Positions 16,134 to 42,336 of a stretch of 43,453 nt of DNA are shown piece after piece (within the stretch, counting starts at the first letter, position 1; each line of letters starts with the position of its first letter). The DNA is from a candidate division WOR-3 bacterium. Its GTDB lineage: Bacteria > Hydrothermota > Tepidihabitantia > SM23-42 > JAOAFX01. A program made the position numbers and the translations under genes. The stretch covers positions 1 to 43,453 of the forward strand of contig JBBILZ010000018.1 of the NCBI GenBank assembly GCA_037444665.1, written 5' to 3'. The notes beneath the pieces were generated by a model. It was not told the DNA's origin. It did not search any database and saw nothing but the letters and a program-made list of their open reading frames with translations.

Positions 16134-16503
16134 TTTAACCTCCTTTTTTAATTCTACCAAAAACAATGGTGCTATCATTTTATCTCTCTTTTAATATCAC
16201 CCCCTTTCAATTGAAGATTATTTATAACATCATCAGGTGTAAAATCCCTTGATAAAAACCCAAACCACCCTAACCTATTTTCACACCCTTCAAGGGCGGA
16301 GGGAATCTGTCTAAAAACCGTTCTATCGTTTGAATCGTAGGTATTGGAATTATTCAAATTCCAATACTTATTTATATTTTATTTTTAGTTATGTCCTTAA
16401 TATCACTATGAAGCCAATAAAAACTCTTGAAAAATCATTAAGTTTTTGGAAATTACCAAACCTCTTGACAATTTGCATTTTTTTGAATATTATTTCCCCG
16501 AAT

Positions 16504-18756
16504 ATGTATAACAAATACTTTGACCTTCGCGCAAAGGCGCTAAAATATTATTTTAATAATAAGACCTCTATAAGGAAAACTGCCCGGCATTTTTCATTAC
16601 ACTACCAAACAGTGTTCAAATGGATTTCCAGTTTCAAAAAGTTATGCGGCCAGGGTTCTGCACAAAGACCTTTTAAAACAAACGCCAGCCGGTTGGACAG
16701 AGAGGGTAAAATTGTTGAAATAAAGGAGATGTATCCAGCACTGACCCTCTCTCAGGCAAGATTGCTCTTGCAACAAAAAGGCTATGCCATTTCCCTTAAT
16801 GGCATCTGGAATGTATGGTGCCGTTATGGCTATGCCGGTTTTGACTGGAATATGATGAGTAATGACTTTACTGTATTTTGCAGATGGTCAAGGGAAGCAA
16901 AAAGAAAATTTCTCCTGGCAGAACAATTTTATTCAATTGGATTAGTTCCTGAGGCGGCAGCGCTGTTAAATACCATTCCGTTTTTGCCCCGAAATGACCT
17001 CCTATTGAGAATTCCTGATGAATATCTAAATCTTCAAAGAAAACTTGAAAAAATATCAAGACAATTCGGTGAACTCCCATTACCTGAATATATCACGAAA
17101 TTATACGCTATTTATCAGCAATTCTTGAAGAAGAAATACTATTATTCAGCAATTCGTGCTGGGCTCCCCCTTATTTTTAGTCTCTCTTGGAAAGGCGAAT
17201 ACAAAAGAATGAGACAGATAATAAAAAGACTAAAGCGCTTTTTAAGTAGGGGTAATCCCCGTTTGTGTAAAAACCTCTTCCCATATTATTTTTCCCTTAA
17301 CCTGATGGAAGGTAGATCTTTTCTGGAGGAGTTGAGGATAAAACAATCACTCAAAATTGCGCGGTTGTGTTATACGATTGCAAAACGCCATAAAAATACT
17401 CCCCATAGACTCCTTGCTAATTTAGGGATATTCTATATAACTCTTGAAAGATATGATTTGGCACAAAAGTTATTAAATCGCGCATTGCCCGGGGTTGATG
17501 AAGGGATACAGAAAAAATTAAAATCTGAACTCGGGCTTATCTCTCTTTTAACAGGGGAAAAAGAAAAGGCACATAAATTATTAAAAGAAGGAGGCATTTA
17601 CACATGGGCACGGGAAGCCAAATATTTGCGATTTAAGTCACTCATCTTTTTAATGGATGGAGAATTGTTCAGGGTAGTAGACCTAACCAAAGAGGTGCTT
17701 CGGATTTCAAAGAGTAGCGAATTGAAACAGGACATCGCCAATTCCTATTTAATGATGGCGTCTGCCTATGCTGGTCTGGGTGAAGCAGATAAGGTAAAGG
17801 AATTACTAAAAAATTTAATAAAATTTACAAAGAGAACACAGCTCCATCGTCTCAGAATAATTGCTACAGTTTTGTTGACTAAAGATATACCAACCAAACA
17901 ACTGCTACTCTTACCATCAATCAAACTCGCCTGGATTTTACATAAAAGAGGATTCCGAATGGCATTTGATTATGCCCGTAAAAGAGGCATCACTTTCTAT
18001 CTTTATCGTTATCTTCTTTTCTGGTCTGAGACTGTGCTTAATGAACTTCAAAAAGTTAAGTTTAATAAAATTCCCAAAGGGCTACTTAAACTACCAATAT
18101 TTAATAATACAACCGTTGCATTCCGGATAAATTTCTTAGGTAGATTAAATTGCTACCGCAATCAAAAATACCATAGAGTAAGATTGAGGCCAAAGGATTC
18201 GGCATTTTTGATCTATCTCTGTACAAAGGCGATGGAACCGGAGAAGACGATAAATTTAGAGGAGGTCTATAAGAATTTCTGGCCCGGAAGCGAAACAGCA
18301 TCACGCAATTTTTCGCATTTGTTGGTCAGAATAAAAAAGACATTGAAGATACCTACCCATTTGTTGACTGTGTCTTGGAGTTATGGAGAGCCAGTTTTAA
18401 TAAACGAAGGAATCTATTTTACTACCGATTTGCAGGAGTTTGAGCAAGTCTTGGCACAGGCAAAGGCGCTGGAGCGGGCAGGAGAATGGGGATTTGCCCG
18501 CAAAGAATATTTAAGGGCATTTAAATTATTCCGTGGCGAGCCATTTAAGAAGAATTTTGATGATTGGTCCGTGGATATGAGGTTTAAGATTTTGTCTCAA
18601 CTTGAGACCGAGACAATAAATTTTGCAAAAAGTTGTCTGGAACATAAAAACAAACAGGATGCTAAAATAGTGCTGGAAAAGGTCTTAAAGATAATTCCTG
18701 ATTCAGACGGAATCCGCAAACTCCATGAACGCTTTCGGATTATTGATTTTCATTAA
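16504..18756 (+). CDS. Large regulator: transposase-like HTH, TPR region, winged helix and BTAD (SARP-type) domain
   Basis: SIRKTARHFSLHYQTVFKW HTH; helical TPR-like middle; INFLGRL...FWP...LLVRIKKTL...TDLQEF...LFRGEPF...DDW. TTGACA-N17-TATTAT at 16465-16493 supports ATG 16504. Confidence 0.75.
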   Translation: MYNKYFDLRAKALKYYFNNKTSIRKTARHFSLHYQTVFKWISSFKKLCGQGSAQRPFKTNASRLDREGKIVEIKEMYPALTLSQARLLLQQKGYAISLNGIWNVWCRYGYAGFDWNMMSNDFTVFCRWSREAKRKFLLAEQFYSIGLVPEAAALLNTIPFLPRNDLLLRIPDEYLNLQRKLEKISRQFGELPLPEYITKLYAIYQQFLKKKYYYSAIRAGLPLIFSLSWKGEYKRMRQIIKRLKRFLSRGNPRLCKNLFPYYFSLNLMEGRSFLEELRIKQSLKIARLCYTIAKRHKNTPHRLLANLGIFYITLERYDLAQKLLNRALPGVDEGIQKKLKSELGLISLLTGEKEKAHKLLKEGGIYTWAREAKYLRFKSLIFLMDGELFRVVDLTKEVLRISKSSELKQDIANSYLMMASAYAGLGEADKVKELLKNLIKFTKRTQLHRLRIIATVLLTKDIPTKQLLLLPSIKLAWILHKRGFRMAFDYARKRGITFYLYRYLLFWSETVLNELQKVKFNKIPKGLLKLPIFNNTTVAFRINFLGRLNCYRNQKYHRVRLRPKDSAFLIYLCTKAMEPEKTINLEEVYKNFWPGSETASRNFSHLLVRIKKTLKIPTHLLTVSWSYGEPVLINEGIYFTTDLQEFEQVLAQAKALERAGEWGFARKEYLRAFKLFRGEPFKKNFDDWSVDMRFKILSQLETETINFAKSCLEHKNKQDAKIVLEKVLKIIPDSDGIRKLHERFRIIDFH

Positions 18757-18778: not shown

Positions 18779-19168
18779 ATGAAATATGATAAGGAGATAA
18801 ATTATTGGCTGAATACCGCTGCCCACGATTTAGATGTGGCTGAGTTCCTCTTCAAAAATGGTAGATACGATTGGTGTCTTTTTATTGCTCATTTGGTCTT
18901 AGAAAAGACGCTAAAGGCTTTTTATGTCCGAGACAATCATAAAATGCCTCCGCCAATTCATAGATTAGACATTTTGGCAACTATGATAAGGCTAAATCTA
19001 TCAGATGAACAATTGGAATTTTTGAAAAAAGTAAATGAATTCAATATTGAGGCAAGGTATCCTGATAAGAAGTTTTCTTTCTATAAACTATGCACCAAGG
19101 AGTTTGCTGAAAAATATTTTACAAAGATAAAGGAATTATACAAATGGCTTTTAGAAGAGATAAAATAG
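18779..19168 (+). CDS. HEPN domain protein
   Basis: W...A.HDL..A...F.AH..LEK.LKA, PPIHRL, EARYPD. Confidence 0.88.
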   Translation: MKYDKEINYWLNTAAHDLDVAEFLFKNGRYDWCLFIAHLVLEKTLKAFYVRDNHKMPPPIHRLDILATMIRLNLSDEQLEFLKKVNEFNIEARYPDKKFSFYKLCTKEFAEKYFTKIKELYKWLLEEIK

Positions 19169-19464
19169 TTGATGAAATAAAGAATTTAATAAAAATACTT
19201 AAAAAAAACGGAATTAATATCTCTGCCGCGTATCTATTTGGTTCATATGCGAGAGGTAGTGCTAATGAATGGAGTGATATTGATGTAGCATTAGTTTCTG
19301 ATAATTTCAGTGGCTTAAGATTTTATGATATAGAAAAATTACTTTCGGTTCTTAAGAAATATAATCATTTCATTGAATTTCACCCCTTTAAAAAAGAAGA
19401 TTTTAATCCTGATAATGATTTATTTATTAAAGAAATAATATCCACCGGGATTAGAATCAAGTGA
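19144..19464 (+). CDS. Minimal nucleotidyltransferase (MNT), partner of HEPN
   Basis: YLFGSYARG...WSDIDVALVS; overlaps the HEPN gene. Confidence 0.88.
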   Translation: MAFRRDKIVDEIKNLIKILKKNGINISAAYLFGSYARGSANEWSDIDVALVSDNFSGLRFYDIEKLLSVLKKYNHFIEFHPFKKEDFNPDNDLFIKEIISTGIRIK

Positions 19465-19545: not shown

Positions 19546-19740
19546 AACTTTGATGATTGGTCATTGAATATGCGATTCAAGATTTTGACCCAACTTGAGA
19601 CCGAGGCGATAAACTTTGCAAAAAGTTGCCTGGAGCATAAAAACAAACAGGATGCCAAAAGAGTGCTGGAAAAGGTTTTAAAGATAATCCCTGATTCAGA
19701 AGAGATTAAAAATTTGTCTGATAGTCTTATAGTCGTATAG
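19546..19740 (+). pseudogene. Orphan copy of the 3' end of a BTAD regulator gene
   Basis: 19546-19700 aligns ungapped to 18553-18707 with 18 mismatches in 155 bp by manual count; reads NFDDWSLNMRFKILTQLETEAINFAKSCL...DSEEIKNLSDSLIVV*. Confidence 0.88.
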
Positions 19741-19888
19741 TCTTATGGTCCGATAGTCGCATGGTCTGATGGCCCTACGGTCCAATGGTCCTATAGTTTT
19801 ATAGTTGGATGGTTTTATGGTTGGATTGTTGGATAGTTGTATAGTTGTATAGTCTGATAGTCTCATGGTCCGATGATCTTATGGTCAG
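19721..19888. repeat. Degenerate octamer tandem array, 21 units of consensus ATRGTYNN
   Basis: ATAGTCTT ATAGTCGT ATAGTCTT ATGGTCCG ... ATGGTCAG, exact 8-bp period. Confidence 0.9.
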
Positions 19889-20385
19889 AGGAGGTTGTAG
19901 CGTCCATTATTAAATGGACAATTTATTCGGTCCAAGGTAATAGGTTAGCCATTCTAAAAAATTGGATTAAATCAAAGTGGTTGCCCAATTTCCCGAAGGG
20001 ACTCTCGTCCCATCGGGACGGAGCATTGGGCTCTTTTTGGTGCTTGATAAATCAAGCAACTACAATTTCAGGATGGCTAAACTATTACGGTTCAAGTTTT
20101 TCTGAAATCCATCCTCAAATTGTTTTAGTTTGAGAATACGACAATACGACAATTGTCGTATTGCCGTATCAATGTATGTGCTGTATAGAGATTTATGATA
20201 ACGTCATTTTTAAGATTAAACCAGGTAAAAAACAAAAAATATTATAATGAATATTTAAACAATTAAATAATTAAACAATTGTTTAAGTGTTTAAATAAGC
20301 TGTTTTCTTCTACTTGTTAACAGGGGGGGGCTTGTTGGAAGATGTTGATTTTTCAGAAAAATGGGATACAATTGAGCAGTGGGCT

Positions 20386-24482: not shown

Positions 24483-25835
24483 TTATGGTTTTTTCAAATC
24501 ATATTCTTTAATTTTTTTGTAAAGCGTTAATCTATTTATTTTCAAAATTTCAGCACACCGTTTTATGTTCCAGGCATTGGCATTGAGAATATTCAGAATG
24601 TGCTCTTTTTCTATGTCCTCAAGGGACATCGTGGATTTTAGCGAGGTTTGGATTAATGCTTTTCTTGCAATAGATGCAGGCAAATCTTCTATGGTAATTT
24701 CTTTAGTATTGCAGATGACCACACTATGTTCAATAACATTTTCTAGCTCCCTGACATTTCCTGGCCAGTCATATTCCATCAATAATTCCATTGCTTTTGT
24801 TGAGATCGTTTCTACTTGTTTTCCTGTTTCAAGCCGATATTTATCCAGGAAGTGCTCAATAATAATTGGCAGGTCCTGTTTACGTTTTCTTAAAGGTGGG
24901 AGCTCAATTGTTATGACATTTAGCCGATAATATAAATCATCTCTGAAAGTTCCATTCTTAACCATTTCTTCAAGATTTTTATTGGTTGCAGCAATTATTC
25001 GGATATCAACCTTTAATAATTCTTTACCACCGAGCCTTTTAAATTCTCTTTCTTGAATAAATCGCAGAAGGTCAACCTGGGTCTTTGGACTAATGTCTCC
25101 AATTTCATCAAGAAACAATGTTCCTTTATCTGCTATTTCAATACGTCCTTTGTACTGTGAAATTGCTCCAGTGAATGCACCCTTCTCATAGCCAAACAAC
25201 TCTGCTTCCAGCAGAGATTCAGGCATTGCTCCACAAGCTACCGGAATAAAGGGACCATTCTTTCTTGGACTCAATTCATGGATTGCCCGTGCAATAAGTT
25301 CCTTACCGGTGCCGCTCTCTCCTCTAATTAATATTGTGGATTTTGTAGGTGCGACTGTTTTAACCATTTCAAAAACCTTTAACATCTCTGGGCTTTTTCC
25401 GACCAGGTCCTGAAATTTAAATCTTTTGGTTAATTCTTTTCTTAATCTTATGTTCTCTTTAATCAATCGTTGATGTTCAATGAGTTTCTTTATTACAATG
25501 CTTATCTCTTCAGGATTAAACGGTTTTACTATATAGTCAGCCGCACCTTCTTTCATCGCTACAACTGCACTATCAATCGTAGCGTATGCCGTAATAATCA
25601 CTACCGGAATTTTAAAATTACTTTCATTAATTCTTTTTAATACCTCTATTCCATCAATTTCAGGCATTTTGAGGTCAACAATTGCTAAATCAAAATTTTC
25701 ACTTTTTAGTAGTTCTAATGCTTTATAACCATTTTCCACGGCAATAGCATCGTAACCATCTTCCTTGAGCCAATCAGAAAGCGAACATCGCATTATCTCT
25801 TCGTCATCAACAATCAGAATTTTACTCTTTATCAT
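24483..25835 (-). CDS. sigma54-dependent response regulator (NtrC/AtoC/ZraR family)
   Basis: REC domain (VDDE, DLKMP), GESGTGKE, GAFTGA, FLDEIG, WPGNVREL, Fis-type HTH. Confidence 0.94.
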   Translation of the reverse strand: MIKSKILIVDDEEIMRCSLSDWLKEDGYDAIAVENGYKALELLKSENFDLAIVDLKMPEIDGIEVLKRINESNFKIPVVIITAYATIDSAVVAMKEGAADYIVKPFNPEEISIVIKKLIEHQRLIKENIRLRKELTKRFKFQDLVGKSPEMLKVFEMVKTVAPTKSTILIRGESGTGKELIARAIHELSPRKNGPFIPVACGAMPESLLEAELFGYEKGAFTGAISQYKGRIEIADKGTLFLDEIGDISPKTQVDLLRFIQEREFKRLGGKELLKVDIRIIAATNKNLEEMVKNGTFRDDLYYRLNVITIELPPLRKRKQDLPIIIEHFLDKYRLETGKQVETISTKAMELLMEYDWPGNVRELENVIEHSVVICNTKEITIEDLPASIARKALIQTSLKSTMSLEDIEKEHILNILNANAWNIKRCAEILKINRLTLYKKIKEYDLKKP

Positions 25836-25844
25836 AGAGCCTCC

Positions 25845-26393
25845 TTAAGTTGATTGTAGAACTTGCTGTCTAAAAAATTCAGCACATTTTAAACAAAGAC
25901 TACATTTTTTATAATCCAGAGTGAAGATGCTGTCAGCCAAGAACATCGCACACCTCGGGTCATCGCAATGAACCAAGCCAAAGCAGTGTCCTAATTCATG
26001 TATCATGGTTTTTTTTAATCGTTCAGAAAGTAGTTCTTTATCATCAGGTAATTTGTAAAAATTTTGATTCAGGCGATGTATTGAAATAATTGCTACTCTA
26101 CCGTCAAGTTGGGCTTCGCCAAAAACATAAGTAAGTATAGGTGTGCATAAGTCAACATTTGTAATACCCACAAGCTTTAGCGCATCTTTCGGAAAATCAT
26201 CCATCAATGTCTGAAGAATTCTGTTGGCATAATACTGATTCCTAATCGGGTCAAATGCAGAAACTGGACACTCCAGGAATTTTCCTAATTTAAATGGTAG
26301 CAAAAATATTTTTTCCAATTCATTAAGAATACAAGTGATATTGTCAATCTTTTCTAACCCGACAGGACTTATGTAGATATATTGAAGTGCCAC
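25845..26393 (-). CDS. Archaemetzincin (peptidase M54)
   Basis: HELGHCFGLVHCDDPRCAM, CxxC (CLKC), YVFGEA. Confidence 0.88.
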   Translation of the reverse strand: MALQYIYISPVGLEKIDNITCILNELEKIFLLPFKLGKFLECPVSAFDPIRNQYYANRILQTLMDDFPKDALKLVGITNVDLCTPILTYVFGEAQLDGRVAIISIHRLNQNFYKLPDDKELLSERLKKTMIHELGHCFGLVHCDDPRCAMFLADSIFTLDYKKCSLCLKCAEFFRQQVLQST

Positions 26394-36068: not shown

Positions 36069-36141
36069 TTAAAATTTTTTATGTTTTGATTGTTTGTATC
36101 TAATTACAGGTAATGATACAAACATAATTACCAGGAGGTTT

Positions 36142-39100
36142 ATGCAGAAAGGGGTTCTGGTTATCGGGGGTGGTATTGCAGGTATTCAGGCTGCCCTTGA
36201 CCTGGCAAATGCGCAATTCCGGGTATATCTTGTGGAAAAATGCCCGAACATTGGCGGAAGAATGGCTCAACTCCACAAGATATTTACCTCAATGGATTGC
36301 ACGGCTTGAATACTCGGTCCAAAGATGATGGATGTCGGTCGACATCCTAATATTACCCTGTATACGCTCTCTGAAGTAAGAGAAGTTAAAGGTGAGGCAG
36401 GGGATTTTTCGGTCAAAATTATAAAACACCCCAGATATGTAAATATTAATCAATGTACTGCTTGTGGTGACTGTGCCAAGGTCTGTCCGATGGTTGTCCC
36501 CAATGAGTTTGATTTAGGGCTTAAATCAAGAAAGGCGATATATACTCCTTATAACCAGGCAGTGCCTTCAGCTTATATCCGGGTAAAAGAAGAGTGCCTT
36601 GATAATGTACCGGAGCGGGCAAGAAAAATAATGAAGCGAATACAGGAAAAGAGAGAAAAAAAATATACCCCCTGGGAACTCATTGCCTGCGGTAAGTGTA
36701 TACAAGCCTATAAGGCAAAGTGTATAAATTTTGATGAGCCAGAGGAGATTATTGATTTAAATGTTGGCGCAATTGTTGTTGCAACAGGAGTAGCATACTA
36801 TGACCCCAGAGAGGCGAGTGAATATGGGTATACAAGGTTTGAAAATGTTGTGACCAGTTTTGAATTAGAGCGATTGCTGGATGCGGCAAGTCCTACCCGG
36901 GGAGAGTTGCTCACTTTTACAAATGTTCGCCAGCCGAGGCGGATTGCTTTTATCCAGTGCGTTGGCTCCCGTAATATGAAAGCAGATATTCCATTCTGCT
37001 CAAGAATCTGTTGTATGAATACAATCAAAGATACGCTGGTGATTAGAGAACACTATCCCGATACAGAAATAATGGTATTCTATATTGATATACGGGCATT
37101 TGGTAAGGGATTTGAAGAGTTTTATAGAAGGAGCCTTAATGCGGGAGTAAAATACATCAAAGGTAAACCATCAAAGATTATTGAAGATAAAAAAACTGGT
37201 GAATTACTCCTTGCCTATGAAGACCAGTTAAAAGGAGAAATCAAAAATCTGGTTGTTGATATGGTTGTTCTTTCATCAGCAATGGTGCCAAGTGAGGGAA
37301 CAAAAAATCTTTCGCAAATATTAGGTATTGAGCTGGATAAAGATGGTTTCTTTAAAGAGCAGGACCCGTGCAGTTACCCCCTGGAATCAACCAGACCTGG
37401 TATCTATGTATGTGGCTGTGCTACAGGAGCAAAAGATATTACAGATGCCATTGCTGAGGCAAGCGGTGTTGCAGCAAAAGCGGGTGTGCTGGTTAAAGAA
37501 AGTGTCGTTGAAGAAAAAAAAGAAGAGATTTTACCACTTGACCTCTCTGGTCCGCTTCGTGTTGGTGTCTTTGTTTGCCATTGCGGCACGAATATTAGTG
37601 CAGTTCTGGATATTAAACAGATTTGTGAATATGCAGCAAAATTAAAGGATGTTGTTTTTGTTGATAACTATCTATTTGCATGTGCCGAGAGTGTGCAGAA
37701 AAAGATTCAAGAGGCAATCTTGCAAAATAAATTGAATCGTATAGTTGTAGCAGCATGCACACCAAAGACACACGAAGGTGTTTTTCAGGAGACACTTTTA
37801 AAGATTGGATTTAATCCCTATTTATTTGATATGGCAAATATCAGGAATCAGTGTTCCTGGGTCCATCAGCACGACCCAGAAATGGCTACAGAAAAGGCAA
37901 AAGAGATTGTAAAAATGTCAGTGCAAAGGGTAAAGAGATTAGAACCCCTATCACCTAAAGCATTGAATGTAGGAAGGGAAGTGCTGGTTATTGGTGGCGG
38001 TGTTTCTGGCATCCAATGTGCGATTGACCTAACAAATCGTGGATTCAAGGTCTATTTGATTGAAAAAGAAAAGGAACTTGGTGGAAGGGTGCAAAGGTTG
38101 TCCAGTGTTTACCCAGCAGGTATGAGCGGCGCATCATTGATTGAGAAAAAGAAAAGAGAGTTAAACGATAAGGGTGTTGAGAGCTATACTGATGCAGATA
38201 TCAAGGATATCAAGGGATTTGTTGGAAATTTTGAAATAAAAGTTGCAACACGAGGAAAAGAACTGGATTTAAAAGTTGGCGCAATTGTGCTGGCGATCGG
38301 TGCGGACCTTTATAAACCACTGGATAAATTTGGCTACGGACAATTCTCCAATGTTCATACCAGTATGGAACTGGAGAATATGCTCATAGAAAATTCAGAA
38401 AATCTGCAAGGTCTGAAGAGTGTGGCATTTATCCAGTGTGTTGGTTCACGGGCAGAAATAGGTAATACCTGGTGTTCAAGGTATTGCTGTCAGTCTGCAA
38501 TAAAACAGGCAATATTGTTGCGCAAAAAAGGAATTGATGTTACAATCTTCCACCGTGGGATAAGAGTTTATTCAAAGGGTGCAGAGATGATGTATCGTCA
38601 GGCAAGGGATATGGGTGTATTATTTATTCCTTATTCAGAACTGGCAAAAGGTGAAATACCAGAAGTCATTGGTGCCAGAAAAGCAGAGAAGATTGAAATG
38701 TATCTTGATGTAATTGACAAAGAGATTGTTGTGCCGGTTGATGCGGTTATTCTGTCTGTAGGTATGGTGCCCAATGGAAACGAGACAATGAAATTATCAG
38801 ATTTATTAAAGGTGCCCAGGGGGAGCGATTTATTCTTCTTAGAAAGGCATTCAAAATTTGGTCCTGTGGAAACAACAGTTGAAGGTGTATTCCTTGCCGG
38901 CTGTTGTATGTTTCCAATGGATATTGGTGATTCCATTTCCCAGGCATCAGCAGTGGCCGCTAAAGTATCTTCATTATTATCCAGGGATACAATTGTTTTG
39001 CCGCCAATAACTTCCTCAGTGGACGAAATCTACTGTCGTGGTTGCGGACGCTGTGTGGATGTGTGTGAATTTCATGCAATCTCGCTTATTGAAAAAGAGC

Positions 39101-39243
39101 CTGAGCTTTTTATCGCCAGAGTGAACGAGGCATTATGCAAGGGCTGTGGTACTTGTGTTCCTGCCTGTCCAACTGGTGCAATTGATTTGCGGCATTTTAA
39201 ATCCGAACAGATAAGTGCCCAACTTGAGGCATTGCTTAAATGA
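36142..39243 (+). CDS. hdrA: Selenocysteine-containing double HdrA-like flavoprotein
   Basis: AGGAGG RBS and ATG 36142. ORFs 36094-36309 and 36325-39243 are in one frame across TGA 36307-36309 (DCTA-U-ILGPK versus DCSQCILTPK in the first HdrA). Two GGGxxG and two FIQCVGSR modules, internal VCHCG. Confidence 0.87.
36330..36347 (+). promoter_or_regulatory. Candidate bacterial SECIS hairpin
   Basis: GGATGTC-GGTC-GACATCC perfect 7-bp stem with G/U-containing loop, starting 21 nt after the UGA. Confidence 0.65.
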
Positions 39244-39680
39244 ATTTCGAACCAAAAATTGTTGCCTTTTGTTGCAACTGGTGCTCTTATCCGGCAGCAG
39301 ATGGTGCGGGTGTTGCCCGATTACAGTATCCACCAAATATCCGGATTGTGCGCGTGATGTGCGGTGGCAGGGTGACACCGGGAATGGTGTTAAAGGCATT
39401 TGAACTTGGTGCAGATGGTGTCATTGTTGCCACCTGCCATTTTGAAGATTGCCATTACATATTCGGAGCAAGAAAGGCTGCAGATGTCCATAAGATAACT
39501 GAAAAACTTGTAGAGATGCTTGGTATTGAATCAGCAAGACTAAAACTTGATTGGATCTCTTCTGCGGAGACGACAAAATTCGCAAAAGTTGCCACAGAAT
39601 TTACAGAAACCATTAGAAGACTCGGACCGAGTTCTATAAATAAGAAGAAAGATAGTATATCGGAGAAAGAAGATGGGTAA
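39240..39680 (+). CDS. mvhD: MvhD/FlpD [2Fe-2S] subunit
   Basis: AFCCNWCSYPAAD, RVMCGGRV, CHFEDCHY, WISSAE. Confidence 0.93.
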   Translation: MNFEPKIVAFCCNWCSYPAADGAGVARLQYPPNIRIVRVMCGGRVTPGMVLKAFELGADGVIVATCHFEDCHYIFGARKAADVHKITEKLVEMLGIESARLKLDWISSAETTKFAKVATEFTETIRRLGPSSINKKKDSISEKEDG

Positions 39681-40101
39681 ATACACCGAAACTGAAAATT
39701 CGAAAAACGAAATACGAAATTCGAAACAAATTCAAAGGCCCAAAATACAAAATTCAAAACGATACGATCTTGAAGAACGTACAATTAAGTTCGCCAGAAG
39801 AGTCAGAGATTTCGTAAAACAATTGCCTAAAACGCTTGCAAATACTGAAGATATTAAACAATTAGTAAAATCATCGGGTTCTGTTGGTGCAAATTATATT
39901 GAAGCTAATGAAGCATTAAGTAAAAAAGACTTCATAATGAGAATAAAAATTTGCCGGAAAGAATCCAAGGAGAGTCGATATTGGCTGAAACTTTTGTGCA
40001 CAAATAATAAATTTGAGTTAGAGAACGAAAGACTATCATTGATTGATGAAGCGACTGAACTTATGAATATCTTCGGTTCCATAGTAAGGCGGAGTGAGTA
40101 A
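39673..40101 (+). CDS. Four helix bundle protein (23S rRNA IVP/bAvd-like fold)
   Basis: YDLEERT..FA, QLVKSSGSVGANYIEANEALSKKDF, KESKESRYWL. Confidence 0.88.
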   Translation: MGKYTETENSKNEIRNSKQIQRPKIQNSKRYDLEERTIKFARRVRDFVKQLPKTLANTEDIKQLVKSSGSVGANYIEANEALSKKDFIMRIKICRKESKESRYWLKLLCTNNKFELENERLSLIDEATELMNIFGSIVRRSE

Positions 40102-40204
40102 TGTCAGAGTTAATTAGAATTTGTTTTGAATTTCAATATTCGGATTTGTTTCGGAATTCGAAATTCGGATTTGTTTCGGAATTCGAAATTCGGATTTCGA
40201 ATTT
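39696..40204. mobile_element. Four-helix-bundle cassette bounded by inverted heptamer-rich arms
   Basis: Left arm AAATTCGAAAAACGAAATACGAAATTCGAAACAAATTC...AAAATTCAAAAC (39696-39760) is an imperfect reverse complement of the right arm GTTTTGAATTTC...TTCGGATTTCGAATTT (40123-40204). Confidence 0.6.
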
Positions 40205-40213
40205 ATTAAAGGT

Positions 40214-41362
40214 ATGAATCTCGCTGAAGCAATTCGCAATTCCCACGCCCTGCTCTGCCTTGATTGTGGCAAGTGCACGGGCGTGTGCCCGGTCTCTAAA
40301 TTAAATCATAATTTTTCACCGCGGGTATTATTAAATAGGGCATTGCGGGCTAAGAATGAAGATTTATTTAAAGATAAAAACATCTGGCAGTGCCTGACTT
40401 GTGGACTCTGTAATGAACAGTGCCCGGCTGATATTAATTACATTGACTTAACTCAGGCGATCCGGTTTGAGGCATTAAAACTTGGTGAAGAGGCATTATG
40501 TTCGCATGGTGGTGCAGCACAGTCTTTAATGAGAATAATGTCTTCACCCGAACTGAGCCCCAAACGGATGGAGTGGCTTGATAAGAATTTAAAAGTTGGC
40601 GAAACTGGTGATACTCTCTATTTTGTTGGTTGTGCCCCATTTTTTGATGTGTTATTCAGTGATATTGTAGCCGTATCAACAAAGACCGGTAATGATACAA
40701 TAAAAATTTTAAATTATCTTGATATTACACCGGTTATACTTAAAGAAGAAAGGTGTTGTGGTCATGATTTGTTATGGCAGGGCGATTTTGAAAATTTTAA
40801 AAAGCTCGCTGAGTTTAATATAAAATTAATGAAGGATGCAGGAATAAAAAAGATAATATTTTCCTGCCCTGAATGTTATCGCACCTTCAGGATTGATTAT
40901 GCAAGATATTTTGATTTTAAAATAGAGATGTACCACATTTCAGAGATTATTTCTCAGGCAGTGAGTGAAAAGAAGTTAAAATTAAAAGAGTTTGCAAAAA
41001 TTGTAACATTTCAGGACCCGTGCAGATTGGGCAGGCACCTTGGTATCTATGAGGAGCCGAGAAAGGTAATGAATGCAATCCCGGGACTCATTTTAAAAGA
41101 GATGAGGCACAACAAGAATCGGGCAATCTGTTGCGGCGTGAGTGCCTGGATGAATTGTTCCAATTATTCAAAAAGGATTCAGATAAGGCGATTAAAAGAG
41201 GCAAAAGAGACAGGTGCTGAATTATTAATCCTTGCCTGTCCCAAGTGTGAAATCCACTTTAACTGTGCAATGAAAGAAGCACCTGAGGCACAGAGGCAGG
41301 ATGAGATAAAGATTGAAACGAAGAATTTCGTTAGTCTCGTTGCAGAAGCGATAGGAGATTAA
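40214..41362 (+). CDS. HdrD/GlpC-like Fe-S oxidoreductase (2x[4Fe-4S] plus two CCG domains)
   Basis: CLDCGKCTGVCP, CLTCGLCNEQCP, ERCCG, CPEC, QDPCRLGR, ICCG, ACPKC. Confidence 0.9.
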   Translation: MNLAEAIRNSHALLCLDCGKCTGVCPVSKLNHNFSPRVLLNRALRAKNEDLFKDKNIWQCLTCGLCNEQCPADINYIDLTQAIRFEALKLGEEALCSHGGAAQSLMRIMSSPELSPKRMEWLDKNLKVGETGDTLYFVGCAPFFDVLFSDIVAVSTKTGNDTIKILNYLDITPVILKEERCCGHDLLWQGDFENFKKLAEFNIKLMKDAGIKKIIFSCPECYRTFRIDYARYFDFKIEMYHISEIISQAVSEKKLKLKEFAKIVTFQDPCRLGRHLGIYEEPRKVMNAIPGLILKEMRHNKNRAICCGVSAWMNCSNYSKRIQIRRLKEAKETGAELLILACPKCEIHFNCAMKEAPEAQRQDEIKIETKNFVSLVAEAIGD

Positions 41363-41416
41363 ATATGGAGATAAATTCGAAATTCGAAATCCGAAATCCG
41401 AAACAAAATCTAAATT

Positions 41417-41539
41417 GTAGCGCCCGATTTCCCCATTTTTCTTGTAGCGCCCGACTTCAGTCGGGCGATGATATCCGTCGTCCATCTAAAGATGGACGCT
41501 ACAATGGAATTAATTGTAGCGTCCGACTTCAGTCGGACG
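41417..41539. repeat. Left REP cluster (GTAG-type palindromes)
   Basis: GTAGCGCCCGACTTCAGTCGGGCG (41444), CGTCCATCTAAAGATGGACGCTAC (41479), GTAGCGTCCGACTTCAGTCGGACG (41516), plus a partial copy at 41417. Confidence 0.9.
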
Positions 41540-41550
41540 AAAAAACAAAA

Positions 41551-42020
41551 TTAACTGATTACAAAACCTTTGGCAGAAGCCATGCGCCTCGCCTGAGAGA
41601 AATAGACTACAAAAAATTAATATATCCAATCCATATTATCGTTGGAACGCACCAGCGGCAGCCGTTTTTCCTACAAAAAAGATTTTCAGAAGTTATAATA
41701 GAAGAAATAGAAAAATTTGATAAATACATCGTTGCCTGGTGTTTAATGCCTGATCATTTACATCTTTTATTTAATCCTGATGGTAAAGAAATAAATATAC
41801 TTAATATAATTAAGCTTATAAAGGAAGAACCTCCCGGAAAATCAATTATCTCTATGGCGTGCAAAAAATCTGGCAAGAAAGTTTCTATGACCATATCCTA
41901 AGAAAAGAAGAGAAAATTGAACAAGTCTCGTTATATATACTAAATAATCCGGTAAGAAAAGAAATTATAGACGATTGGCAAAAATATCCCTATTCATGGT
42001 CGAGGTACTATGAGAAGTAA
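41551..42020 (+). pseudogene. REP-associated tyrosine transposase (RAYT, Y1/HUH), frameshifted
   Basis: HAPRLREIDY...WCLMPDHLHLL...KLIK, then after a 1-bp loss near 41821 GRTSRKIN...WQESFYDHILR...YILNNPVR...YPYS. Start uncertain. Confidence 0.88.
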
Positions 42021-42051
42021 TCTATTCGACCCAATACCTTTTTATTTTTGT

Positions 42052-42297
42052 GATAACGCCCGACTCTCCTATTCTTATTGTAACGCCCGACTTCAGTCGG
42101 GCGATGAAATCTCTCGTCCATCTAAAGATGGACGCTACGGGGAAAATTTGTTTCATTCTTGCTGTAGTGTCCAGTTTCAACTGGACGGAGAAAAAAATGT
42201 TCGTCCATCTAAAGATGGACGCTACAAAAGAATAAATTGTAGCGCCCGACTTCAGTCGGGCGAAAAACCCTCCCGTGCATCTAAAGATGGAAGCTAC
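42052..42297. repeat. Right REP cluster, three inverted doublets
   Basis: Copies at 42080/42115, 42164/42202 and 42239/42274, plus a partial copy near 42052. Confidence 0.9.
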
Positions 42298-42336
42298 CAA
42301 GAAAAAATAAGGATAAACCTAAAATAGAGGGATTTT

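Follow-up and report, generated by a model that had tools for sequence, protein, structure and literature searches.

Among the closest described systems to the element analysed here is the intervening sequence (IVS) of rRNA genes, where an IVS-type gene has been reported within inverted termini and with adjacent heptamers (PMC4990558, PMC11270868). IVSs that bear an S23p/PF05635 ORF are described in the 23S genes of Coxiella burnetii and Leptospira (PMC4990558) and in both 16S and 23S genes of CPR bacteria (PMC11270868). Avd, the nearest characterised relative of the protein, is a basic pentamer reported to bind specifically to an RNA stem-loop encoded at its own locus (bioRxiv 2023.10.23.563531). 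The closest solved relatives, BT_0352 (PDB 2RLD, an entry with five chains) and Xcc0516 (PDB 2GSC), are uncharacterised S23-family proteins, and neither entry title names a ligand or function. Genes of the family have also been noted between the genes of cas operons, in passages that make no mention of arms (PMC3936711). Intergenic heptamer direct repeats are described in Beggiatoaceae, Cyanobacteria and Bacteroidetes in an account that gives no known transfer mechanism, proposes S1, Csp or CsrA as binders and, in its main text, has no mention of 'intervening' or 'S23' (PMC4679880). RUP and BOX (PMC3049150) belong to the small interspersed repeats, which are short, intergenic and bounded by inverted repeats, with many gene-less copies.

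The window, by which we mean the whole stretch of 43,453 nt that was analysed, ends in an hdrA-mvhD-hdrD-hdrC-like redox operon. A small gene between inverted heptamer arrays occupies the junction of mvhD and the hdrD-like gene, and the features of this segment are as follows.

39240..39680, forward strand: mvhD/flpD, the upstream host gene (PF02662); from 39633 (codon 132) to the end its sequence departs from that of the closest congener, G008.
39673..40101, forward strand: four-helix-bundle gene (PF05635/TIGR02436), 142 aa, with a conserved core from residue 31 (39763).
39696..39730, forward strand: left end of the element, four heptamers (AAnnnCG) and an AAACAAA core; looser A-rich units run to about 39760.
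39736..39738, forward strand: AGG in place of the clade's usual start ATG within the left arm, from the sequence compared with relatives.
40066..40089, forward strand: codons N132 to R139 of the last helix; residue 139 (132 and 142 less tightly) tracks heptamer base 7.
40114..40204, forward strand: right arm; four heptamers and the core recur here in inverted form as its outer block (40170-40204).
40141..40190, forward strand: exact 25-bp tandem duplication, through which the arm can form a hairpin of its own (40155-40203) and contains a site resembling a terminator (40175-40201).
40205..40213, forward strand: 9-nt spacer, its sequence including a weak purine run ahead of the hdrD-like start.
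40214..41362, forward strand: hdrD-like host gene with CCG and Fer4 domains; 40214-40238 lie within the tract that differs from G008.
41373..41407, forward strand: by its sequence a second, unpaired left end, four heptamers and core, at the hdrD-hdrC junction.

The ORF at 39673-40101 matches PF05635 (50.2 bits against a cut-off of 33.8) and TIGR02436 (67.1 bits against 24). The sequence-only reading had judged this gene to be unrelated to redox function; its neighbours are FlpD/MvhD and a CCG/Fe-S HdrD-like gene. Its start overlaps the mvhD stop, as that reading also had it, by 8 nt. An in-frame ATG at most 45 nt from the core is present in 74 of the best 80 relatives and is the usual start of the clade, inside the left arm; this codon reads AGG in the window, and the ORF therefore relies on the ATG under the mvhD stop. 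The predicted model of the protein has four core helices, with a pLDDT of 86 (93-99 over residues 31-140). Its first-ranked fold matches are 2RLD and 2GSC, the former also matching by sequence (E 3e-12), and Avd appears at ranks 15-28 (TM ~0.6, 14% identity). By analogy with the five chains of 2RLD and with papers on Xcc0516 and Avd, the protein is probably a homopentamer. The median pI is 9.2 across the best 80 relatives. Compared with the G002 copy, the window gene has a pN of 0.12 and a pS of 0.86, and five ungapped pairwise comparisons gave a pN of 0.12-0.18 against a saturated pS of 0.79-0.98; the protein is conserved. The G+C content of the cassette is 33%, compared with 39-45% for its neighbours.

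Each end of the element (39696 and 40204) consists of four heptamers and AAACAA. The right arm had been described as an imperfect reverse complement of the left, with a perfect 25-bp tandem duplication and an end 9 nt short of the next ATG, and all three observations were reproduced: 39696-39736 and 40164-40204 are 80% complementary over 41 nt (alignment score 42, reached by 0/60 shuffles), 40141-40165 is repeated exactly at 40166-40190, and the arm ends at 40204 with the hdrD-like ATG at 40214. The left arm had been equated with the first ~30 codons of the gene and the heptamers with AAAT[TAC]CG. The arm itself is real, but it begins at 39696 (codon 8-9) and not at codon 1, and the motif is too strict: the left arm includes one AAAAACG unit, and on the reverse strand AATT(T/C)CG occurs twice among the right units.

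Both ends could be parsed in 52 of the best 80 relatives, where they take the form AAnnnC(G/T) followed by AAACAA, with four heptamer units at 35/52 left ends and 47/52 right ends. The bases just outside the ends are not conserved among these relatives, and the terminal base is not constant either (T in 18/52 left and 19/52 right ends). This variability rules out a TA-type target duplication as a rule; no direct repeat flanks the window cassette. The idea of five heptads for five subunits is unsupported, because looser units carry on inward. Rfam gave no match across the element (three sub-threshold matches lie farther downstream), and a search of the whole window found no tRNA or tmRNA. Three promoter-like sites were found against 3.1 expected, and one terminator-like site, the duplicated right-arm hairpin, against 0.6 expected in shuffles.

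The window cassette shares with the rRNA IVSs its protein family, a gene within terminal inverted repeats whose complementary termini can form a stem, heptamers upstream of the ORF and a patchy distribution. It differs in lying between the protein-coding genes mvhD and hdrD-like and not in rRNA. The described Coxiella stem has 28 bp with one mismatch and a bulge, whereas the window stem is a periodic mismatched array, and the Coxiella ORF is described as decaying whereas the window gene is under strong purifying selection (PMC4990558). The predicted fold is that of Avd (PDB 4DWL, 8UB7; bioRxiv 2023.10.23.563531). In contrast to a DGR, however, there is no template/variable repeat, the neighbours are redox genes and the genome (99.5% complete) contains no PF00078 reverse transcriptase; PDDEXK_3 (PF13366) was not found in it either. 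The putative target of the window protein also differs from that of Avd, being a heptamer array at both ends. The cassette is thus a genuine PF05635 family member and neither an rRNA IVS nor part of a DGR. The heptamer repeats described in PMC4679880 resemble those of the window: they are tandem arrays of a 7-base unit close to stop and start codons, occur in either orientation and sometimes lie within ORFs. Their repeat unit is different, and no cargo gene is described for them there. Like a MITE, the window cassette has defined terminal inverted repeats, four heptamers and a core at both ends; unlike what is expected of MITEs, no constant target duplication was found, and the heptamer-array ends follow a non-enzymatic cargo protein. 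Cyanobacterial STRR repeats are 7-base tandem arrays near stop and start codons, and Correia elements are short, intergenic and bounded by inverted repeats, with many gene-less copies. The operon cassette is a variation on the IVS-type design of a gene in inverted repeats, with clear turnover at this junction.

The best 80 relatives in named genomes belong to 20 phylum-level groups. Inverted arms (score of at least 30) were found at 61/80 of these homologues compared with 2/267 shifted controls, and at 70/87 of a second homologue set. Both neighbours are co-directional in 57/80 relatives by a crude ORF rule and, in a scan of 89 of 153 flanking frames, are unrelated operon genes, including leuC/leuD, ATP synthase, ruvA/ruvB and ABC permeases. 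Viral contigs gave 56 pattern matches to the cassette gene, none of which was confirmed as a relative.

Within the genus, 12 genomes contain 73 family matches, ten of them in the genome of the window. The expectation that other members of the family would also carry inverted arms held for part of them. Among the 72 copies with usable flanks, tested in fixed 170-nt windows, 42 (including 6/10 in this genome) have inverted arms beyond all 60 shuffles and 30 do not, although the fixed windows probably miss some arms, for example those of fused or long ORFs. The length of the arm unit (7, 8 or 10 nt) follows the protein clade in the genus tree, and several junctions hold different clades in different congeners. 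At swapped junctions the upstream break falls shortly ahead of the stop codon, and the downstream one coincides with the ribosome-binding site or lies close to it. We compared 128 junctions with G008 and kept the 77 with an agreed ATG and a spacer of up to 600 nt; 16/77 are discordant between the two genomes, which are ~95% identical. The arm core matches 38 loci in the genome, compared with 3 after shuffling, and only two of the 38 carry the gene, the others being gene-less hairpins or lone arms. Comparison of 12 arm sites with congeners revealed nested arms, arm-type swaps and clean empty sites; direct repeats (10 bp; 7-8 bp) were present at two of the 12, both gene-less copies.

Several individual sites illustrate the range of arrangements. 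A 291-bp gene-less hairpin (G000:C19 ~25770-26060, L194) is flanked by a 10-bp direct repeat that spans, and so restores, an overlapping stop/start and is single at the empty site of G008, G005 and G006. Three arm types are nested at one junction (G000:C36 ~16350-16600, L192), where G008 has a full cassette with 8-base arms and G006 is empty. At G000:C4:57985-58302 the helix-bundle gene lies in a 285-aa open frame that runs into the downstream gene; five congeners have similar frames of 271-283 aa, and two others a separate cassette of another clade at this site. Lone left arms occur in frame within T9SS type A sorting domains (L332:1-498, L333:3-497 and about ten similar matches), often beside arms of other types, and TIGR04183/PF18962 was confirmed for two of these arm-bearing domains. 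In the window itself, an unpaired 8-base repeat array at 19711-19890 resembles the left arm that congeners have in their hdrA-mvhD cassette. It follows a gene pair coding for HEPN and nucleotidyltransferase proteins (18779-19464) and precedes a gene that by eye is mfd-like.

The mvhD-hdrD junction was surveyed by searching 40 relatives with mvhD and examining the 24 best orthologous loci besides that of the window, one of which ends at a contig edge, leaving 23 scored junctions. Empty sites with mvhD adjoining hdrD, which the sequence-only reading had proposed to seek, were found in 11/23 relatives, all of which belong to the same order but to another family. In 3/23 the junction is occupied by a helix-bundle clade other than that of the window, with 8-base arms, the clade of the window lies behind a relic left arm of the 8-base type in 1/23, an AAA_14/DUF4143 gene is present in 1/23, and gene-less spacers, some with arms, are found in 7/23. 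The start of hdrD overlaps the tail of mvhD similarly in three empty alleles (L018, L019 and L023). Stable synteny, which would have spoken against mobility, was not observed, as relatives have different cassettes or none here; together with the unrelated flanks of more distant relatives, this survey rules out both stable synteny and a redox-specific regulatory role. The AAA_14/DUF4143 gene (G005, L155:4365-5681) has no obvious arms, and its presence indicates that the site accepts unrelated guests too.

In G008 the flanking genes are ~95% identical to those of the window, but the junction holds another helix-bundle clade, and BLASTP gave no alignment between the two junction proteins. Along mvhD, 27-30 of every 30 nt are identical up to codon 130, and identity ends after codon 131 with a break after 39632, returning at nt 26 of hdrD. 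The first 30 nt of hdrD contain 12 mismatches (the maximum at 61 concordant junctions in the same comparison is 7), and thereafter 26-30 of every 30 nt are identical. The exchanged unit here thus comprised the mvhD tail, the cassette and about nine codons of hdrD. Such a unit, spanning a gene tail, a cassette and a gene head, points to recombination with a donor allele. The junction genes of the window and G002 are sisters (support of 100/90, 94 and 99/92 in three trees). Judging from the gene layout, the cassette would be non-polar in the operon.

The neighbouring junctions of the operon also vary. The hdrA-mvhD junction (39240-39243) is empty in the window, G008 and G005, and a third helix-bundle clade with 8-base arms is present there in G002, G006, G009 and G012, where the right arm appears to provide the mvhD start codon. 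The hdrD-hdrC junction (41365-42336) contains palindromic REP-like repeats, an unpaired left arm and a Y1/RAYT-like gene, the C-terminal portion of which is in another frame; similar repeats, but no such gene, are found there in several congeners. The hdrA-like gene (36094-36325) appears to be split, with a 71-aa N-terminal ORF just before a 972-aa ORF, and likewise in G008, which possibly reflects a selenocysteine or other read-through codon.

To relate the protein to its arms, we sorted 84 loci by heptamer base 7 into 51 G-type, 20 T-type and 13 untyped loci. Residue 139 is R/K/Q/H/N in 51/51 G-type and T/E/V in 20/20 T-type loci (71/71 typed). This rule was then fixed and applied to 97 further loci, where 72/72 scorable loci agree and 25 could not be scored; the queries that found these were the window protein and one further copy encoded in its genome, so that the loci are new but the clades are not. 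Across 148 typed loci the best predictors of arm type are residues 139 (0.986), 132 (0.926) and 142 (0.858), all on the last helix, and the best column outside this helix reaches 0.82. No synonymous site exceeds 0.65, but these sites are saturated, so that their low signal excludes recent hitchhiking only. The left arm alone (124/124) follows residue 139 as well as the right arm alone (126/126), and the link therefore cannot be due solely to the last helix having hitchhiked with the right arm beside it. In 29/148 rows the closest sequence over residues 31-125 belongs to the other arm type, and residue 139 differs in 29/29 of these. A third arm type (17 loci) goes with changes at residues 131 and 135.

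A tree built without the last helix requires 8-9 arm-type changes (200 bootstrap trees), and 16 in a larger set, but independent pairs on well-supported branches number only 2 in the first set and 3 in the larger one, and a sign test would need more. Most T-types have K132/E139, but one group has H132/T139 and branches from within G-type Planctomycetota, which suggests at least two origins of the T-type. The C36 copy in the genome of the window is a T-type homologue with E139. These comparisons show a correlation: in both arms, heptamer base 7 corresponds to residue 139 of the last helix. The link between them is new here; in the literature, mainly the main texts of open journals, we found neither a residue-base code nor a connection of this family to heptamer arms in operons.

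The comparisons across loci show a cassette with fixed ends, located at stop/start junctions of unrelated operons in many phyla and accompanied by many gene-less copies, and they show it to be gained, lost, nested and replaced at given junctions. The proposal of a mobile cassette with no transposase of its own agrees with the empty sites, the junction swaps, the arms in many phyla and the gene-less copies. Our preferred reading, to which we give roughly even chances, is that the protein of this transposase-free cassette binds its own ends as duplex DNA and that the cassette is exchanged at operon junctions. The element would be a promoterless guest made up of a left heptamer array, a four-helix-bundle gene and an inverted heptamer array. 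Its basic, probably pentameric protein would read its own heptamers as a duplex through the last helix; the duplex would most simply be double-stranded DNA, and the protein would thereby hold or mark both ends. Insertion may be carried out by a partner outside the cassette, such as host recombination or repair. Once a junction is occupied, recombination with anchors in the genes on either side would carry its alleles from one related lineage to another, and insertions would survive only if the upstream gene retained a stop codon and the downstream gene a start.

The strongest competitor, which we consider possible but doubtful, places recognition at the RNA level: the arms would pair in the operon transcript and the protein would bind the duplex at positions 6-7-1-2 and the core, either shielding it from RNase III or termination, so that the insertion does no harm, or licensing a cleavage that drops the gene from the message. 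The ligand of the Avd pentamer is an RNA stem-loop, a precedent for RNA rather than DNA; relatives of the window protein are basic; and the Coxiella 23S IVS, with terminal inverted repeats and heptamers upstream of its S23p ORF, is reported to be cut by RNase III (PMC4990558). RNase III is encoded in the present genome too. Folding of the element, the check proposed with the sequence-only reading, gave an RNA z of -2.86, with 0/100 shuffles equally stable, and an 18-bp helix between the arms (39716-39733 with 40117-40134, p ~0.94); the duplicated part of the right arm is predicted to make its own hairpin (40155-40203, pair probability ~0.76). The residue-base link would suit an RNA duplex as well as DNA, and positions 1, 2, 6 and 7 stay paired.

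The pattern of arm variation does not resemble that of a helix maintained in RNA, with G·U tolerated and compensatory changes. Mismatches in register comprise 69 G·U and 72 A·C at 45 distinct loci (94 against 88 and 48 against 42 in other counts), so that there is no preference for G·U, whereas the tRNA stems of this genome, used as a control, have 28 G·U and 0 A·C. No covariation was detected at heptamer positions 3, 4 and 5, where 113, 98 and 70 of 180 cells match compared with 114.7, 99.3 and 69.6 in permuted loci. Position 7 covaries between the arms (151 against 99.5) but does so equally out of register (154), which indicates that it switches for the whole locus and not pair by pair. The sense and antisense arm duplexes are equally stable (-29.4 and -29.1 kcal/mol). 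From the missing positional covariation and the parity of G·U and A·C, the arms look like two inverted motif arrays rather than a maintained helix, although pairing at the invariant positions 6-7-1-2 is possible. Partnerless lone arms are also common, some of them in frame inside genes, which further argues against the RNA level. The sequence-only reading had suggested an mRNA intervening sequence in which the paired arms loop out the gene and bring mvhD next to hdrD. The capacity to pair is upheld, but excision from the mRNA is possible and unsupported by these counts, and cleavage without ligation would split the message instead of joining mvhD to hdrD.

A third explanation dispenses with direct recognition: gene and arms would be co-inherited, the arms homogenised by slippage and conversion, and the whole spread solely by host recombination, homologous on one side and through microhomology on the other, into tolerant spacers. 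We regard this as unlikely. Replaced tracts do enter the flanking codons, in the last 15 nt upstream (p = 0.005) and the first 30 nt downstream (p = 0.011), though few junctions drive both results, and proven independent T-type origins are few. The lpl clusters of S. aureus are a described precedent for a junction as a unit of recombination (PMC2568036). This explanation leaves unaccounted for, however, the persistence of four units and a core across ~20 phylum-level groups when synonymous sites are saturated, the location of the three best predictors on one helix face, and the difference between T and E at residue 139 between T-type groups. Least probable is an ordinary MITE, with the arms as its terminal inverted repeats, a transposase encoded at some other genomic locus to move them, and the gene as a passenger: the sharp ends, the excess of gene-less over gene-bearing copies, the 10-bp and 7-8-bp direct repeats seen at two of the former and the Y1/RAYT-like gene at the next junction would fit, but the ends have no constant target dinucleotide or duplication, and arm type follows the clade of the cargo protein and a single residue in it. 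Passive co-inheritance and an ordinary MITE both explain less than the binding readings.

PF05635 has had solved structures without a known function, and intergenic heptamer arrays have been described for which neither a means of transfer nor a proven binder is given (PMC4679880). The correlation between one residue and one base names a candidate ligand and makes both the function of PF05635 and the question of what binds such arrays testable. Turnover is fast, with about one in five operon junctions (16/77) differing between two ~95% identical genomes, and with each exchanged tract the end of one gene and the start of the next are written anew, with consequences for annotation and for the evolution of core operons. 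More tentatively, PF05635 proteins may in general recognise short tandem repeats by sequence, following a simple helix-to-base code, their clades being self-recognising mobile cassettes and the rRNA IVSs and Avd offshoots of these, a generalisation that we hold to be possible but well short of probable. If it is true, cassettes of different PF05635 clades, with 7-, 8- and 10-base arms, would compete for operon junctions without a transposase of their own and would seed gene-less heptamer arrays between and inside bacterial genes.
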